Notes under the pieces: generated by a model
Seen by the model: only the letters and a program-made list of their open reading frames with translations
What the model was told of the DNA's origin: nothing
Database searches by the model: none
Shown: positions 4,030 to 62,300 of the stretch, one piece after another
Numbering within the stretch: position 1 is the first letter of the stretch
How the letters are laid out: each line of letters begins with the position of its first letter
NCBI GenBank assembly: GCA_000146045.2
Contig: BK006946.2
Location: 416,001 to 480,000, forward strand
DNA from: TPA_inf: Saccharomyces
Taxonomy: Eukaryota
Reading direction: 5' to 3'
DNA: 64,000 nucleotides
Position numbers and translations under genes: made by a program

Positions 4030-4191
4030 TTTGTTCGCACTTTATTTCTTGCTTCTTTACAAATATACCTGTAAAAATTGAGACCGGATACAAACTAACA
4101 AGGTGGATAAACTTCTTTTAGGTCTTTTTACAATTAACAACAATTTCGATGGAGCCTAGGTTTATAAACTTTCACTTGTTTATACAACTTT

Positions 4192-22789: not shown

Positions 22790-23207
22790 AAAAGTGTTCT
22801 TTAATTCCTTCTAATTTCATTAAAACAAGTACTTATATTTTGGGCAGTATGTAGAATAGATGTTCACACTCTATAGCCAAATAACTTAATTATTGGTCAA
22901 GGTAATCTCTTGCAATTGGTGTCACTGCCACATCTTTTAACGTCAACAGTAAATCCGCAAAATCCCGTCGCGTCGCCGCTAAGCAGGCCCAATTTTAGCT
23001 CACTGCGGCAGCGGGCTGGCCGTGTGGCGCGAGGGTCAACATGCAAAAAAGGACGATAGATAACCTTAAAGGAAGTATTCATTTCTTCGCTAAATTTTCA
23101 GTGCTCCCTTACTTTACCGACAAATTGGATAAAAACATATAAAACACAACAGCAACACGTAGCCATACCAACCAATTCCACAAATCACCAGCCGTTCGTT
23201 CCTAAAA

Positions 23208-47553: not shown

Positions 47554-47625
47554 TCCGTGATAGTTTAATGGTCAGAATGGGCGCTTGTCGCGTGCCAGAT
47601 CGGGGTTCAATTCCCCGTCGCGGAG
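47554..47625 (+). tRNA. tD(GUC): tRNA-Asp (anticodon GUC)
   Basis: TCCGTGATAGTTTAATGGTCAGAATGGGCGCTTGTCGCGTGCCAGATCGGGGTTCAATTCCCCGTCGCGGAG matches yeast tRNA-Asp exactly. It is followed by a T7 Pol III terminator. Confidence 0.93.
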
Positions 47626-53476: not shown

Positions 53477-53847
53477 TATGGTCAACAGAAACGTCCTATG
53501 TTTGAAAGGCAGCCTGTTCTTTATAAGTTGATAAATTGAGAAAAGTGCACCAAATCTTAATCTACTCTGTGTGTATTTTTAGGTCCCTTAAATAACAGAA
53601 AAAGTATAGCTTTAGCCGCCGAGGTCCACTCAGTTTGGAGTAGTTACCCTTAACAGGCACTCACTCCGTTTTGTTCTTTCGAAGAGATACGTTATAGTAT
53701 ATCGGCAACAAATGATAGGCTCATTGTTAGCGTTCATTAATTATTAGATTAAAATTTATTTAAGTGTATCGTGTTTCTTTACTTTATGTACGAAGATTAA
53801 TATGCATTTAAAGGTATCATCCACGGAAAAAAAATACTCCATCAGCG

Positions 53848-56352
53848 TTAGCGGAAGTTATTAACTACTGTACCGCAGTCTACGCAATAATAGTTTCTAT
53901 CTTGTTGGTCATTAGCACCAGAAAAAGCCTCAAACCTTGAACCGTTACAAACATTGCAACGGATAGGTAAATTCATTGCGCTCGTTGGAGTGGTAGGCCC
54001 ATGTGCATTGGAGAAAATAGATGACATGCTTTCCCTTGGTGTTCTTGGCTGTGCATTACTGCCGAGTGTTTTTAGTGATGTACTGCTTTTGGGACATATA
54101 TTAGAGTATCCACGTCCCGTTGCATAGCCTTTTCCAGTATTAGTATACGCCGCTGCCGGTTGGCCAGCCAAGTTTGATTTCGCTCTCGAGTTGAAGCTTC
54201 GACTCAAAGAATGCAAAGAATCAGAACTGTTAAACCTTCTCCGAACCTCTCTATTGTATTCTTCTAGTTTGAGTAACACGCGCTTTCTTATAACAGAGGG
54301 CATATCTGCTCTAAACACACGAATAGTCCCTACGTTATCAGTACTGATCAATATCGTTCCAATTGCGTCAACGACATCTGGGATAGCACTGGTGGCGGAA
54401 GCATTAGAAATTGAGCCTGGTTTAGAATTGTAGCCCAAAGACGACTCTACATCTGACATTATGCCATCGTCGTTACTCCGACTCAAAACATCGAAACTAT
54501 CGGATGTCTGAAAAAACTCTAGAGATAGCTCGCAGATAACATCGTTAGACAAAGATAATGTTTTCGAAGTTTCTGGCGGTGCAATGCTAACACAAGTAAC
54601 AGGGGCATTGTGTGCATGAAAAGAAATGTAATCCGTATTTTTGATATAATGATCGTTGCTATGATGAGGCAAGGGAAGTAAGTTAGTAAGTTTTAAATGA
54701 TGATGTGGTTTTTCTTCGTTATTCTGGCTGGAAGACCTACTCATTGATTTACTAAATATGCTTCTCAAACTTCCGGACCGAGCCAATCCCTTTGGTTTCC
54801 TTTTAGGTTCGTCTTGATCATTCTCTCTATCCGAAGACTTTAACCTCCAGCCGTAAACCCAATGGTCATCACTACTATTTACAACGATTGGCTGACCATG
54901 CCAGATGGACAATTGTGCCTTGTGTTGGGAAGATCCGCTATGGAAGCCTTTCAATACCTCTAGAAGCTTCCTCTGTTCTAAGTCAAAAATTCTTATCCTC
55001 GAATCATTCGATGTAACTACTAAGCGGAAAGAATTGTCCAGTTGAGATCTAAAAGCTTGCAAACCCGTCACACGTGGACCATGACGAATTTTTGAGTCAG
55101 TTTCCGTGACCATGACGTGAGCGTTTTGTTCTTGTGTTTGTCTATCAGCTACGTGAAATGAAGAAACTGGAGTGAGACCTCTGGTCATCAGAATATGAAC
55201 GTATCCATTAAATGTTCCTATTATAGTGTATTTTCCCTCCTCAGGGGATAATGTAACAGATGTTATTAAGTCTTGACAATCGTACTCAAAGCTAACTTCA
55301 TCATCCAGTATAGACCATAACCTGCATTTGTGATCCAGACAGCCGCTAATGAAAAATCTATCGTCGGTGGGGTGAAATTCCACACAAGTGACAAAATCAG
55401 GATGTATGAATGTCTTAAGTGAATTTTTCCTATCGGGATGCCATAGTTTTACTGTCTTATCCATCGATGCTGACAAAATAAAATTATTTTTAGACCAATT
55501 TATATCCAGAACATCTTGCACGTGTTCTTTATACAGTCGCAAAGGCGTTGGGTGAAAGACAGGCGCATACAAATTCAATAATTTTTCCTTCTCTTCGTAT
55601 TTCTCTGTAGCAGAATCCAAAAATTGTTTTTCTTTTGGATTGTTCAATGAACTGACCTGCTGTTTGATCCGCATCGACTTGGCTCGTGCCTCTTTATTTG
55701 ATTCCGCACTCGAGTCCAATTCGGCTCTTTCAACTGGAGAGCCAATAACTTTCCATATTCTTATTTTACCATCTTTGCTACCAGTGGCCATAAATTTTCC
55801 ATCGCGGCTAAACTTTGTACTCCATATAGCTTTAGAGGTTGGTTCAGATGATTTGGAAGTGGAGGTAACCGTTTCACCTTCGTAGGCCATTAGTTCTTGC
55901 GCGAGAAACAATCTTCTAAATTGTTTCAGGTTTTTCCGACGTTTCAACATTTTAATGTATTTTGGCTCTCTCAAATAGTTTTCAAATTGCTCTGTATCAA
56001 TGGAATTGAAAGGGTAAAACTCATTGACCCTAAGATTCGAATTTAAAGTATTGCCTCTCTGTAAATGTTCCTTTAGTCTCATAAATGAATCAGTGGCGTT
56101 GCCGTTGTTACTATATTTTAATTTGTCATTTGTATTATTAGTTTTTGTCATTCTGAACTTCAATGGCTCGATATCTGCAGAATATTCAAGATTTAGTTTG
56201 CTTTTACTTTTACTTTCACCGGAACTGGACTCGCCGTCGAAGCTCTCTTGATGCGACCGACTCTCCTCTTCAGATCCAGTGGTATTCGAGGAATTGCTGA
56301 ATTCAGAATGTACCTTGCTTATACTTGTTTTATCCTCCGCCATATTCGTCAT
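53848..56352 (-). CDS. YMR102C: WD40-repeat protein of unknown function (DGR2 paralogue)
   Basis: 834 aa with WD repeats in the central region and low-complexity termini. Confidence 0.85.
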
Positions 56353-56901
56353 ATTTCTAATTCTCGTACTATATTATACGCCACTACCGTATACAATATG
56401 CCAAGAGCTCAGCAACTGCTTTCTATTCTTTTTCTTTGATTGTCTTTGTTCCTCTTTTCCCTCTTTCTTTTCCTCCTCTGTTTAACAAGTTGGAGAGAGT
56501 TGCAGTCTTGTTCCCTATACGGTCCAGCTGTGACTTGTACGAACGCGTATTGTATCCCAGGAAGAAATAATGATGTAACTCGCTTACGAAGCTTAAGAAA
56601 GGGCAAAAAAAATGTGTCCCCCCTAACTGCGAAAGTGAAAAAAAAAAAAATTAATGCGTTGAATTTACACAGTTCTATGTATAATTAACTGCTACGATAG
56701 AAACTGGACAGTAGTAAGAAAGATTGGACTAGGCATCACCCAGACTTTACTTTTTCGGCATACATATCTATTTATATATAGTTTAATACGTAAATACAAA
56801 TATATATATACTGTAAATTTTAATCATTAAGCTTTTCTTTTTTTTTTGTTCACGCTTTCACCCTGTGAGGCGAATGAGGTTAGCTTTTTCCCTTTACGGG
56901 A

Positions 56902-57303
56902 CTAGGTAAGGCTCCCCATGGCTGAGCCCGCGCAAGGAAATCCAGGATCATCCGCGGAAGAAATAAGCTGCTCCCGGCCCAGACTATGTAAGAAAAGTGG
57001 CAACAAACAGAAAAGCGAATCTTTCCTTTCAGGCAATGCAAGGGTCCTTTGCCGTTTGGCGAATTCCGGTAACCTCGACTTGCGCCCCGCGGGCTTCGCT
57101 TTGACATCCGCGGGTATAAGCGTCCGTCCTTCGGCCGACAACAGGTCGGTCTTTGATCTCAATTCCGTAGATGGAAGAATTCTGATAATGCTGTAAAAGA
57201 AATGAATAAGCAACATAAGTCGTGTGAGAGTTGCTAAAAGAAGAGCGCAGCCTCTGCGGACCATTCTATTTTCTGTAGTTCTTCTTGTCCCCGTTAACCA
57301 CAA
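56902..57303 (-). CDS. Dubious ORF (YMR103C-like) lying inside a GC-rich island; probably not protein-coding
   Basis: 133-aa ORF with no recognisable domains. Other ORFs overlap it on both strands. Local composition is atypical. Confidence 0.15.
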   Translation of the reverse strand: MWLTGTRRTTENRMVRRGCALLLATLTRLMLLIHFFYSIIRILPSTELRSKTDLLSAEGRTLIPADVKAKPAGRKSRLPEFAKRQRTLALPERKDSLFCLLPLFLHSLGREQLISSADDPGFPCAGSAMGSLT

Positions 57304-57419
57304 TAGTAACGGAGTGCGTATCGCAATCTACTTGAACTATCCATTTTTGAAAATTGCAACCTCTTGCGGCTATAGCTATAAATTCCGTCCGGCTCGGCTC
57401 GGCTTGCTTCGGCTTGCTT

Positions 57420-59453
57420 CTAACTAATGCTTCTCCCCTGCGAAGGAGAATCACCCAACTGTTCGTCACCAATGTACGTCCACCCACCAAACTGCTTTTG
57501 AATACTTGCACTTAAGTACTCGTCCACTACACTATCGATCGGTTTTTCCTTAGTGAACTCTTGATCAAAATTTGCAGTATCTATTTCACTCTTTACAATT
57601 GGCTTGTAAGGCGGAATATAGCCCTTCAAAAGTAGCTTTTTCCATGAGATGTCTTTAAAGAAAGGATGGTTACGAATTTCATCTGTACCGTTAACGCCGA
57701 GTCTTCTGCTTGGGTCTCTGCTTAAGAGGCCAATTAATAGGTCTTTTGCCGCAGGGTCAAATCCATCAGGAAATAGTAGCGGTTGCTGCAGAATTTTCTT
57801 GTACATAACAGGAACGTTCTCATCATAGTATGGTGGCAGCCCTGTCATCATCTCATACAGTAAGATACCTAATGTCCACCAGTCAACTGTTTTAGTATAG
57901 CCCTGCCCCAACAAGATTTCTGGTGCCAAATATTCGGGAGTACCACAGAAAGTGTCTGTTTTGTCATTATCCTTCATGTTCAGCTTGCAAAGCCCAAAAT
58001 CACACAGTGCAATATGTCCTTGGTAATCCAATAGAATGTTTTCAGGCTTTAGGTCACGATAAATGACGTCAAGTTTGTGTAATGAATCGAGAGCACATAA
58101 TAGTTCTGCAATATAAAAACGGGAGCGTGCTAGACTGAATCGTCCCTCGTGTTGTAAATGGTAGAACAGTTCACCGCCATTAATGAAAGCTAATACTAGG
58201 TACAACTTCTCCGGAGATTGGAATGAGAACTTCAACGGAACAATAAAGGGGCAGTCAACTCTTGCTAGGACAGTCCTCTCCGCTAAAGTATGTGTCACTT
58301 CACATTTCGATACAATATATGCTTTTCTCAGAGCCTTCAAAGCGTAAATCTTTTGGGTATCTTTTTTCCTTACTTGCATCACTTTGCCGAACGAACCCTT
58401 CCCGATAACCTTCAATAGATCAAAGTCATCAATGGAGAGAGGCTTGTTCTTAGAAGGTTTGTAGTCCACCGTGATATTTAATTTACCATATCCCCTTTCT
58501 AAAGAAATCCAATGGTGATTGTATAGTCTTATTTGGGCTGCAGAATCGATTTTTAAATTCAAAGGTAAATGGAAGGAGTCCAAATGGATATCCTGATTTG
58601 TATTGATTTTTTTTAAAATCTCCTTCAGTACTTCGTCCTGCTCGCCAATCTCCTGTTGCCAGTTTTTAGAGGGTAAAAGTAGGGATGGAATCCTTGCAAA
58701 GACATCGATTTTTAAAAATCGTAATTTTCTTGTTACATCAAATGTCGATATTTTGTTAAACACTGGTTGCTCCATCGTTCCCATATCTGGACTAATAGTA
58801 GTAATAGAATTATCAAATTCAATTGTAAAATAAAGTAATGGGCTTGAATTTGTTGACCCAGGTAACAATATAGAGGAAGGAATGAATTTAGTGGCAAAAG
58901 CTCTATCTATCAAGCCTTCCCCTGCTGAATCTTGATCCACTCTCTTGTATCGTGGTAGCTGCCGCATTATGGCTGCAACTTCGGAAGCGTCATTGGATGA
59001 TGAAGTAAGGATGCCGGAACTTAGTAGTTTTTGTAAAATAGTAGAGTTAGAGGTGATAGGGAAGGGAAGAGTAAAATCTTTACCAGAATACACCTTCACT
59101 GTCATTAGTCCGGATTCCGAACTCGGTCCCTGCGTCTCAGTAGACGACTGACTAGCTTTCCTTTCGGAAGCCTTAGAATTGTCATTTCCTATCCCCGATG
59201 GATTCTTGAAGGATGCATCATTACGTAATTTTGGAGAACTTAAGGAACTTGGGAGAGTCTCATTTGTATTGATCTTTCTTATATGGTGTTCGTGTTCATG
59301 ATTATGATTCTTCGGGCTACCATCGTGATGTTTTTCTCCATGGTGGAAATGAAACAGGCCATTACCCCACGATTTTTCATTTTCATCTTCACTACTCCCA
59401 TCATCTTCTTTGGACCTTCCTAACTTAAACTTGGATATTCGCCAGGAATGCAT
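57420..59453 (-). CDS. YPK2: AGC-family Ser/Thr protein kinase (SGK homologue, TORC2 effector)
   Basis: 677 aa from MHSWRISKFKLGRSKE. Kinase motifs GKGSFGKV, HRDLKPEN, DFG and APE. C-terminal turn/hydrophobic motif. Confidence 0.9.
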   Translation of the reverse strand: MHSWRISKFKLGRSKEDDGSSEDENEKSWGNGLFHFHHGEKHHDGSPKNHNHEHEHHIRKINTNETLPSSLSSPKLRNDASFKNPSGIGNDNSKASERKASQSSTETQGPSSESGLMTVKVYSGKDFTLPFPITSNSTILQKLLSSGILTSSSNDASEVAAIMRQLPRYKRVDQDSAGEGLIDRAFATKFIPSSILLPGSTNSSPLLYFTIEFDNSITTISPDMGTMEQPVFNKISTFDVTRKLRFLKIDVFARIPSLLLPSKNWQQEIGEQDEVLKEILKKINTNQDIHLDSFHLPLNLKIDSAAQIRLYNHHWISLERGYGKLNITVDYKPSKNKPLSIDDFDLLKVIGKGSFGKVMQVRKKDTQKIYALKALRKAYIVSKCEVTHTLAERTVLARVDCPFIVPLKFSFQSPEKLYLVLAFINGGELFYHLQHEGRFSLARSRFYIAELLCALDSLHKLDVIYRDLKPENILLDYQGHIALCDFGLCKLNMKDNDKTDTFCGTPEYLAPEILLGQGYTKTVDWWTLGILLYEMMTGLPPYYDENVPVMYKKILQQPLLFPDGFDPAAKDLLIGLLSRDPSRRLGVNGTDEIRNHPFFKDISWKKLLLKGYIPPYKPIVKSEIDTANFDQEFTKEKPIDSVVDEYLSASIQKQFGGWTYIGDEQLGDSPSQGRSIS

Positions 59454-61860: not shown

Positions 61861-61965
61861 CCCCTTTCACGTAAGTTCCCCACGAAAAAAGTAGTGCGCG
61901 ACACCACCCCTTTTCGTGAGCTCCGCGCTTCTCTTCACCGAGCCTAAGTTGGGCCTCTCCCCCCT
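61861..61965. promoter_or_regulatory. Three STRE (CCCCT/AGGGG) elements in the PGM2 promoter
   Basis: CCCCT at 61861–61865, 61907–61911 and 61961–61965, which is 255–360 bp upstream of the PGM2 ATG. Confidence 0.6.
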
Positions 61966-62300
61966 AGAAAGAACAAGTTGGCCCTGTTGTCCTTAGCTCG
62001 CAAGCTCAGGGGCAGCAGCGTGTGTTGAGATTAGAGAACCGCTCGACCTCAACGGATGATAGTATGATTTTAGTACATACAGGGAACGTCCTCTACCCAC
62101 GTTTTATTGTTGTTGCATTTACTTTTGAACAGCGACAGGGGGGAAGGTGTAAAGGAGGAAAAGCAACCTGCATGGCTAGTGTTCAAAGTTACAAGGTAAC
62201 AATGCAAATCAGTAGTATGACAATTATTTACCCGCTATTTATTTTTTTTTCTCTTTAACTGTGGTGACGAAAACATAACTCAAAGGATGTTAGACCTTTT

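Follow-up and report, generated by a model that had tools for sequence, protein, structure and literature searches.

A conserved GC-rich island upstream of LAF1 (YMR102C) as a probable distal activating sequence with a Pdr1/Pdr3 site

The promoters of the Pdr1/Pdr3 regulon, those of PDR5, SNQ2, YOR1, PDR3, RSB1 and TPO1, are marked by the PDRE, a palindromic Pdr1/Pdr3 site for which a type A (TCCGCGGA) and a type B (TCCGTGGA) are distinguished; half-site binding by Pdr1p/Pdr3p has also been reported (bioRxiv 10.1101/2023.08.11.553033). LAF1 (YMR102C), named and described as a sterol-transport cofactor (PMC7760575), has already been connected with these regulators. It is common to a Pdr1p CUT&RUN dataset and the Pdr1p ChIP dataset of Fardeau et al., and its peaks are also visible in ChIP-exo raw data (bioRxiv 10.1101/2023.08.11.553033). 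Deletion of PDR1 lowers the YMR102C mRNA, and that of PDR3 does so to a lesser degree (PMC3091778). The YMR102C promoter has been described as containing at least two Pdr1p/Pdr3p motifs (PMC2903563), and LAF1 is listed among the targets of the Yrr1/Pdr8 family (PMC12239629). A wider group of upstream activating sequences (UASs) is bound by Zn2Cys6 dimers, including those of Gal4 (CGG-N11-CCG), Put3/Tea1 (CGG-N10-CCG), Leu3, Hap1 and Oaf1/Pip2; here inverted or everted CGG half-sites give rise to short GC-rich palindromes.

The locus considered here is a GC-rich island in the window, that is, the whole 64,000-nucleotide (64-kb) stretch of S. cerevisiae DNA that was analysed. It lies 520-800 bp upstream of LAF1, downstream of YPK2, and overlaps the orphan ORF YMR103C (Table 1). 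In common with the regulon promoters it has a type-A PDRE, a one-base variant of that site and a CCGGAA half-site core, and according to the papers the mRNA of the downstream gene is PDR1-dependent and its promoter is bound by Pdr1p. It departs from them in that the target is a sterol-transport cofactor and not a transporter, that the PDRE is unusually far from the ATG (at -606), and that the site resides inside a 280-bp module of 55% GC with many other conserved blocks. With the wider group of Zn2Cys6 UASs the island shares CGG half-sites arranged as short GC-rich palindromes and, as for Put3/Tea1, a CGG-N10-CCG unit (57111-57126), which is intact in three of the five species compared. Unlike those UASs, however, it contains no Gal4, Ppr1, Hap1, CSRE or Lys14 pattern, its single ORE match is confined to S. 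cerevisiae, and the one spacing kept throughout the genus is that of the PDRE (CCGCGG, zero spacer).

The reading which we favour, with a probability of about 0.8, is that the island is a distal UAS of the LAF1/YMR102C promoter, in which about ten short conserved, putative protein-binding blocks lie close together, several of them built on CGG/CCG. It is ordinary gene-control DNA that is already documented, a known kind of element and essentially already known. The Zn2Cys6 activators Pdr1p and Pdr3p would bind the PDRE as dimers, the related factors Yrr1p, Yrm1p and Pdr8p would probably use it also, and through it LAF1 would join the multidrug-resistance regulon. The short CCGCGG palindromes would then be the binding sites themselves and not RNA stems, and the high GC content would largely reflect the dense packing of sites, albeit with site content alone being insufficient. 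YMR103C and the ORF antisense to it would be chance open frames in DNA that is GC-rich and poor in stop codons. The importance of the island would extend little beyond annotation hygiene, a compositional oddity proving to be ordinary regulatory DNA.

Table 1. Features of the LAF1-YPK2 interval (positions are those of the 64-kb window)
Feature	Position	Strand	Remarks
LAF1/YMR102C coding sequence	53848..56352	-	Gene most likely controlled by the island
TATA-like element TATAAATA	56769..56776	-	Invariant in the five-species alignment
GC-rich conserved core, proposed UAS of LAF1/YMR102C	56870..57146	-	About -520 to -800 from the LAF1 ATG; GC 0.55
YMR103C ORF, 120 aa + stop	56902..57264	-	S. cerevisiae-specific among the five species compared; overlaps the proposed UAS
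Antisense 92-aa ORF	56918..57196	+	Reading frame not conserved
Invariant block TCAGCCAT, part of TCAGCCATGG	56918..56925	-	Contains the start codon (ATG) of the 92-aa ORF on the + strand
Canonical type-A PDRE TCCGCGGA, palindromic Pdr1/Pdr3 site	56951..56958	.	Flank GGATGATCC invariant (56945-56953)
Invariant 12-mer GGACCCTTGCAT	57036..57047	-	Longest invariant run in the island; matches no motif scanned
CCGGAA, Pdr1/Pdr3 half-site core (TTCCGGAA type), in conserved block TTACCGGAACTTCGCCAG	57064..57069	-	Exact in three of five species
Palindrome CCCGCGGG, in conserved block GCCCGCGGGGCGCAAGT	57086..57093	.	Partly conserved
Second PDRE-like site TCCGCGGG (CCCGCGGA on the LAF1 strand)	57107..57114	+	
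YPK2 coding sequence (677 aa from the ATG)	57420..59453	-	677-aa orthologue called in S. kudriavzevii

The evidence which carries this reading comes from a comparison of S. cerevisiae with S. kudriavzevii, S. arboricola, S. eubayanus and S. uvarum, S. paradoxus and S. mikatae being left out. In the four other species the syntenic position is also GC-rich (0.55-0.62), and 126 of the 294 columns in the five-species alignment of the island are invariant, compared with 2-30% in the neighbouring 57150-57420. Conservation takes the form of short invariant blocks of 6-12 nt with frameshifting indels between them. Position, composition and short blocks have thus all been kept across these Saccharomyces species. 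The YPK2 3' flank (57150-57419), poorly conserved, separates that gene from the island, and YPK2 ends rather than starts on the island side; the element probably acts on LAF1 rather than on YPK2. TATAAATA, a candidate for the LAF1 TATA box, lies between the island and LAF1, some 100 bp from the former and 420 bp before the ATG. Nearer to the ATG is a block (56496-56679) which is conserved still better than the island. The distance between the island and the LAF1 ATG is fairly large, and both points count against the reading.

Of the blocks, the PDRE is the most readily interpreted. TCCGCGGA is present in a single copy in the 64 kb, on the promoter side of LAF1 and within an invariant context (CTTCCG.GGATGATCC), and the aligned site is retained in the orthologous promoters of all five species: as TCCGCGGA in S. 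arboricola and S. eubayanus, as the type-B form TCCGTGGA in S. uvarum and as the one-base variant TCCGCGGG in S. kudriavzevii. The second PDRE-like site also forms the CCG half of the CGG-N10-CCG unit, and the block TTATACCCGCGG found there is conserved in S. cerevisiae, S. kudriavzevii and S. arboricola. The CCGGAA core may likewise be a site for Pdr1. The CCCGCGGG palindrome is less constant, its central CGCGG reading CGCAG or CGTAG in three species. The island was scanned for the motifs of Gal4, Put3/Tea1, Ppr1, Leu3, Hap1, ORE, CSRE, Lys14, Rgt1, Rsc3, Reb1, Abf1, STRE, URS1, Yap1, Rpn4 and SRE, together with a consensus for Yrr1, and none of these is conserved in all five species save patterns which overlap the PDRE. 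Only one of the roughly ten conserved blocks is assigned to a factor, and the others probably bind further factors. Of the three readings offered in the initial annotation, only that of a CGG-type element for Zn2Cys6 regulators is borne out, given a canonical PDRE, further conserved blocks containing CGG, and papers which place Pdr1p on the LAF1 promoter. The published Pdr1 peak presumably sits on the PDRE, and 56951-56958 offers a concrete conserved site for the reported occupancy.

Outside the genus the picture is mixed. The LAF1 orthologue of N. glabratus has a tandem TCCACGGA-TCCGTGGA upstream at -882/-874, and that of N. dairenensis has TCCGCGGA at -1170 and CCCGCGGA at -597, adjoining a GC peak of 0.55. 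No PDRE is found upstream of the LAF1 orthologues of N. bracarensis and K. naganishii, hence the regulation is not shared by all orthologues. Neither a PDRE nor a GC island is present upstream of DGR2, the S. cerevisiae paralogue of LAF1, or of the pre-duplication gene of T. globosa, and comparison of these two promoters with the island by blastn yielded only chance matches of 10-12 nt, one of them (E 0.18) overlapping the quasi-palindromic block AAGGACCCTTG. After the genome duplication, then, the PDRE island is found on the LAF1 copy only, which fits a divergence in the regulation of the two sterol-transport cofactors. The gene order YPK-RRN3-SSH4-SRP21-DGR2/LAF1 is seen both in T. globosa and in the S. 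cerevisiae sister block and is thus ancestral, implying that three genes were deleted exactly at the island locus. A more ambitious proposal, rather unlikely when taken as a whole, is that a composite genus-wide enhancer, with some nine of the ten blocks (notably GGACCCTTGCAT and TCAGCCATGG) serving other factors, was put together after the duplication, at the scar of the lost RRN3, SSH4 and SRP21. Through it LAF1, and not DGR2, would have entered a drug and sterol stress network, and within it YMR103C would have arisen, in the S. cerevisiae lineage, as a translated de novo ORF.

The composition of the island requires separate comment. The richest 300-bp segment of the entire 64 kb is 56851-57150, with 55% GC (sd 0.040 among 300-bp segments), and the richest 100-bp segment is 57051-57150, at 0.63. 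The core (56900-57160) has a GC content of 0.552, against 0.32 in the intergenic flank 56600-56900 and a mean of 0.380 for the window. The GC-rich island reported in the initial annotation is therefore real, and the strings quoted in its support are found where they were placed, but its extent needs to be revised. Of the interval proposed, 56880-57420 (GC 0.488), the part up to about 57150 stands, with a start near 56870, whilst 57150-57420 has a GC content of only 0.43-0.47 and is poorly conserved. CCGCGG, also singled out earlier, occurs at 56952, at 57087 (within CCCGCGGG) and at 57108; these are the sole three copies in the 64 kb and compare with 0.20 expected from the dinucleotide content of the island, a 15-fold excess (P ~0.001). 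CGG and CCG triplets are five times as dense in the island as in the window (57.8 versus 11.9 per kb), although their number (16 versus 13.6 expected) shows no excess over what the composition of the island predicts.

These figures bear on the possibility that the GC richness is mainly a matter of regional composition, the sites being incidental, and that it arose by GC-biased gene conversion, with a conserved recombination hotspot at the promoter, or by selection for nucleosome-favouring sequence. In every species the variable alignment columns match the invariant ones in GC content (0.52-0.61 versus 0.57), so that site content alone does not account for the composition, and the unremarkable triplet count points in the same direction. 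A purely compositional process would not, however, produce invariant blocks of 7-12 nt, an exact 8-bp PDRE retained across the genus, or the excess of CCGCGG. As a replacement for the UAS such a process is improbable; it is compatible with the UAS and may add to it.

Less probable again is that the island is a protein-coding gene, YMR103C, with coding constraint behind both its conservation and its composition. YMR103C is an ATG-initiated ORF of 120 aa which is preserved across many S. cerevisiae strains and carried by RefSeq. Its ATG is absent in all four other species, however, where the column reads ACA, GTA, GCA and GCA, and each of these species has 8-12 frameshifting indels in the frame. 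At codon positions 1, 2 and 3 the fraction of variable sites is 0.55, 0.54 and 0.58 (p=0.83; p=0.99 for the core), as compared with 0.08, 0.14 and 0.76 (p=2e-14) for YPK2 and p=0.004 for LAF1. No ORF similar to YMR103C occurs at the orthologous loci, no homologue outside S. cerevisiae was found in 5.8 billion clusters or 1.84 billion representatives, and Pfam gave no match; one additional phmmer match was an artefact of repeats and gave no BLASTP alignment. YMR103C may encode a young, species-specific de novo peptide, but this would not explain conservation across the genus. The other frames of the island are of 75 aa on the - strand (where the frame containing YMR103C runs to 133 aa, or 120 aa from its ATG) and of 92 aa on the + strand. 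The 92-aa ORF has no periodicity (p=0.92), and its frame is broken in S. kudriavzevii and not the same in S. uvarum. The earlier view of these ORFs as by-products of GC-rich non-coding DNA is upheld, whereas the description 'dubious' does not fit the status of YMR103C in RefSeq, which is that of an uncharacterized protein. In being short, orphan and located in GC-rich intergenic DNA, with neither start nor frame conserved, YMR103C resembles proto-genes and de novo ORFs, but the DNA beneath it is under strong non-coding constraint, and its apparent 'conservation' among strains would be owed to the underlying enhancer. It is better regarded as an ORF which overlaps an enhancer and is not itself conserved, and deletion of YMR103C would remove the LAF1 UAS.

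It is scarcely tenable that the island is a structured non-coding RNA with the palindromes as its stems. Short perfect inverted repeats and high GC are present, a 'YMR103C' microarray signal exists (PMC4462951), and in S. eubayanus and S. uvarum one pair of the 5-bp CCGAC/GTCGG hairpin is U-A instead of C-G. Yet that hairpin is equalled or bettered by 53 of 500 shuffles, and the island folds no more stably than its dinucleotide shuffles (MFE z +0.64 on the + strand and +1.22 on the - strand), so the 'hairpin-dense' character ascribed to it is no more than its composition gives. In RNAalifold, which together with explicit pair counting had limited power with only five sequences, the covariation term is unfavourable on either strand (penalties of +4.8 and +2.4 kcal/mol), many pairs are broken and there is no net covariation. 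Rfam returned no match to the island, either at the gathering threshold across the whole window or at E up to 10 across 56600-57600; elsewhere in the window it identified one tRNA, and sub-threshold miRNA-like noise in an AT-rich spacer. Neither RNA nor coding signatures are thus seen in the island, and blocks of 6-12 nt split by indels are typical of protein-binding sites. The array signal follows that of YPK2 (3.50x versus 3.59x), as 3' read-through would, and may represent YPK2 read-through.

The initial annotation also raised a foreign or introgressed remnant, and this, or a decayed relic of RRN3, SSH4 or SRP21, can practically be dismissed, since despite a composition atypical of yeast intergenic DNA and the loss of those genes exactly here, the island occupies the syntenic site in five Saccharomyces species, is therefore old and vertically inherited, and found no match by blastn among 72,556 plasmids. 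Searches of the intergenic DNA of six species by tblastn with the S. cerevisiae and T. globosa RRN3, SSH4 and SRP21 proteins gave only noise, scattered and inconsistent between species, with a lowest E of 0.27 among the matches listed. A metagenome scan with the 17-base island probe GGACCCTTGCATYKCCT recovered 120 loci. The only one to match the full 1,067-bp YPK2-LAF1 intergenic region by blastn is a contig 99.8% identical to S. cerevisiae; a second has a match of only 32 bp, lying outside the island, and the rest are chance 17-mer matches.

The GC-rich patch between LAF1 and YPK2, which lie 1,067 bp apart, is a conserved upstream activating region for zinc-cluster regulators, carrying a pleiotropic drug response element (PDRE) and most probably serving a known Pdr1 target, LAF1; a non-conserved ORF overlaps it. 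The strings cited in the initial annotation are present at the positions given for them. The excess of GC over the window is real, albeit narrower in extent than the reported 56880-57420, being confined to about 56870-57150: GC is 0.488 over the former interval and 0.552 over 56900-57160, compared with an average of 0.380 for the window and 0.32 in the adjoining intergenic DNA. The most GC-rich 300-bp (56851-57150; 0.550) and 100-bp (57051-57150; 0.63) stretches of the 64 kb both fall here. All three copies of CCGCGG in the window (56952, 57087 and 57108) lie in the island, where simulations preserving its own dinucleotide content predict 0.20 (P ~0.001).

Annotated features and open reading frames at and around the island (window coordinates)
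Feature	Position	Strand	Remark
LAF1/YMR102C	53848-56352	-	S. cerevisiae gene
YPK2	57420-59453	-	S. cerevisiae gene; coordinates from its ATG
YMR103C, 120 aa	56902-57264	-	ORF overlapping island
ORF, 75 aa		-	same strand as YMR103C; overlaps island
ORF, 92 aa		+	overlaps island
tRNA gene	47554-47625	+	Rfam tRNA, 56.3 bits; sole Rfam match in window

Orthologous loci were fetched via LAF1 homologues from S. kudriavzevii, S. arboricola, S. eubayanus and an S. uvarum-type contig. In all four the YPK2-LAF1 distance is about 1.04-1.06 kb, and a GC island (0.55-0.62) recurs in the corresponding place, some 520 to 820 bp upstream of the LAF1 ATG. The conservation profile, proposed earlier as a check, is uneven. 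For 270 bp past the YPK2 stop the sequences hardly align, with 2-30% invariant columns, while the island has 44-62%, arranged in short blocks with small indels between them (AAGGACG, TTATACCCGCGG, CGCAAGT, TTACCGGAACTTCGCCAG, GGACCCTTGCAT, CTTCCG.GGATGATCC and TCAGCCATGG); after these comes an invariant TATAAATA at 56769-56776. To judge from the alignment, such block-wise conservation is the probable footprint of protein-binding DNA. Directly past the YPK2 stop codon, at 57376-57420, there is a pentamer/decamer repeat (GCCGA and GCAAGCCGAA on the gene strand), the copy number and sequence of which vary among Saccharomyces species.

One invariant block contains TCCGCGGA (56951-56958), a canonical type-A PDRE, the site for the Zn2Cys6 activators Pdr1p and Pdr3p, and its only copy in the window; PDRE types are as defined in bioRxiv 10.1101/2023.08.11.553033. 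The element is also TCCGCGGA in S. arboricola and S. eubayanus, its counterpart being TCCGTGGA (type B) in S. uvarum and TCCGCGGG in S. kudriavzevii. A second PDRE-like site, a one-base variant, lies at 57107-57114; in S. eubayanus and S. uvarum its place is taken by a full second PDRE, approximately 215 bp upstream of the first. Another conserved block holds CCGGAA (57064-57069), the core of a reported Pdr1/Pdr3 half-site. None of 20 other yeast motifs scanned in the island is conserved in all five species. Assignment to a factor concerns one island block only, the predicted Pdr1p/Pdr3p site.

The suggestion of a CGG-type Zn2Cys6 element finds support in the conserved PDRE together with published Pdr1p data. 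LAF1 is common to the Pdr1p CUT&RUN targets and the ChIP targets of Fardeau et al., and has peaks in ChIP-exo raw data too (bioRxiv 10.1101/2023.08.11.553033). YMR102C mRNA drops when PDR1 is deleted and, to a smaller degree, when PDR3 is (PMC3091778); its promoter has been noted to contain two or more Pdr1p/Pdr3p motifs (PMC2903563), and the targets of the Yrr1/Pdr8 group include LAF1 (PMC12239629). The product of LAF1 is a beta-propeller protein that partners the sterol transporters Lam2/Lam4 (PMC7760575), which makes it plausible that the gene belongs to a regulon for membrane and drug stress. Both element and regulator are already in the literature; the observation is real and its explanation ordinary. 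A type-B PDRE, TCCGTGGA, with a flank as at the island site (TTCCGTGGATGAT), also occurs at 53820-53827, in the LAF1-SRT1 spacer and 21 bp beyond the stop codon of LAF1; the same spacer in S. kudriavzevii, S. arboricola, S. eubayanus and N. glabratus lacks it.

The gene order PGM-YPK-RRN3-SSH4-SRP21-DGR2/LAF1 is shared by the S. cerevisiae sister block and T. globosa, a species that split off ahead of the genome duplication, which makes the YPK2-LAF1 spacer the scar of a three-gene loss (RRN3, SSH4 and SRP21). The island itself is not a relic of these genes, since translated searches with the three lost proteins gave only noise (lowest E-value 0.27 among the matches listed). Neither the promoter of DGR2, the LAF1 paralogue, nor the 239-bp T. 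globosa promoter has a GC island or a PDRE. The N. glabratus LAF1 orthologue carries tandem PDREs, TCCACGGA-TCCGTGGA, at -882/-874; these stand back to back with zero spacer (TCCACGGATCCGTGGA, 4119-4134 of locus L006), whereas the Saccharomyces sites are spaced. In N. dairenensis, TCCGCGGA lies at -1170 and CCCGCGGA at -597, the latter beside a 0.55-GC peak; the N. bracarensis and K. naganishii LAF1 orthologues have no upstream PDRE. We infer that, after duplication, the PDR regulon gained the LAF1 copy and not DGR2.

A regional compositional force, for instance biased gene conversion, nucleosome preference or degenerate CGG-site turnover, may contribute to the GC content of the island, since its variable alignment columns (GC 0.52-0.61) are as GC-rich as the invariant ones (0.57). 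With constitutively active Hog1, an array recorded 3.50-fold induction of YMR103C and 3.59-fold of YPK2 (PMC4462951), a parallel which suggests that the 'YMR103C' signal is YPK2 3' read-through and not an independent gene. As a conserved gene YMR103C fails on start codon, frame, codon periodicity and homologues: its ATG column reads ACA, GTA, GCA and GCA in the four other species, each of which has 8-12 indels within the ORF that are not multiples of three, and the variable fractions at codon positions 1/2/3 are 0.55/0.54/0.58 (p = 0.83), without periodicity. The YPK2 3' end, a control in the same alignment, gave 0.08/0.14/0.76 (p = 2e-14). YMR103C has no Pfam match, and comparison with 5.8 billion protein clusters gives it no relatives beyond S. 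cerevisiae; exhaustive phmmer against 1.84 billion representatives added one match, a repetitive protein with which BLASTP gives no alignment. The antisense 92-aa ORF likewise lacks periodicity (p = 0.92) and does not keep its frame across species. A standard YMR103C deletion would take out the LAF1 PDRE region.

A structured non-coding RNA finds no evidence in Rfam, folding or five-species covariation. Searches of Rfam, with gathering scores for the entire window and with E up to 10 for 56600-57600, give no match in the island. Minimum free energies are no better than those of dinucleotide shuffles on either strand (z = +0.64 and +1.22), so the 'hairpin-dense' character is what 55% GC gives. 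In the five-species alignment many pairs are broken and RNAalifold gives an unfavourable covariation term for each strand (+4.8 and +2.4 kcal/mol); the CCGAC-aacag-GTCGG hairpin (57135-57149) is equalled or bettered by 53 of 500 column shuffles. Recent foreign origin is ruled out by the block-wise conservation at syntenic Saccharomyces loci; blastn of a plasmid collection found no match to the island, and of 120 metagenome loci returned by a 17-mer probe out of the island, a single one, with 99.8% identity to S. cerevisiae, matches the full 1,067-bp intergenic region; a second aligns over 32 bp that lie outside the island, and the remainder are chance matches.

Closer to LAF1, a proximal block at 56496-56679 (about -145 to -330 from the ATG) is more conserved than the island and than the YPK2 coding end, with up to 82% invariant columns in five species and the invariant runs GTAAGCGAGTTAC, TATTTCTTCCT, AATACGCG and GACCGTATAG. 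Its blocks were not found in Nakaseomyces or Naumovozyma, and its RNA folding z is +0.28. It holds an ACGCGT (MluI/MCB-type) site and several CGTA-type motifs, and a further motif pair, ATACGG...GCGTATA, lies at 56375-56392. The CGTA-type motifs at both places resemble sterol-response elements (TCGTATA), a similarity that would be suggestive upstream of a sterol-transport gene such as LAF1. The second GC peak of the window, at 61861-62060 in the PGM2 upstream region (0.555 over 200 bp), contains four or five CCCCT/AGGGG (STRE-like) motifs, and 100 bp at 22941-23040 reach 0.62 GC, with GTCGCGTCGCCGC, GCGGCAGCGGGCTGGCCG and GGCGCGAGGG.
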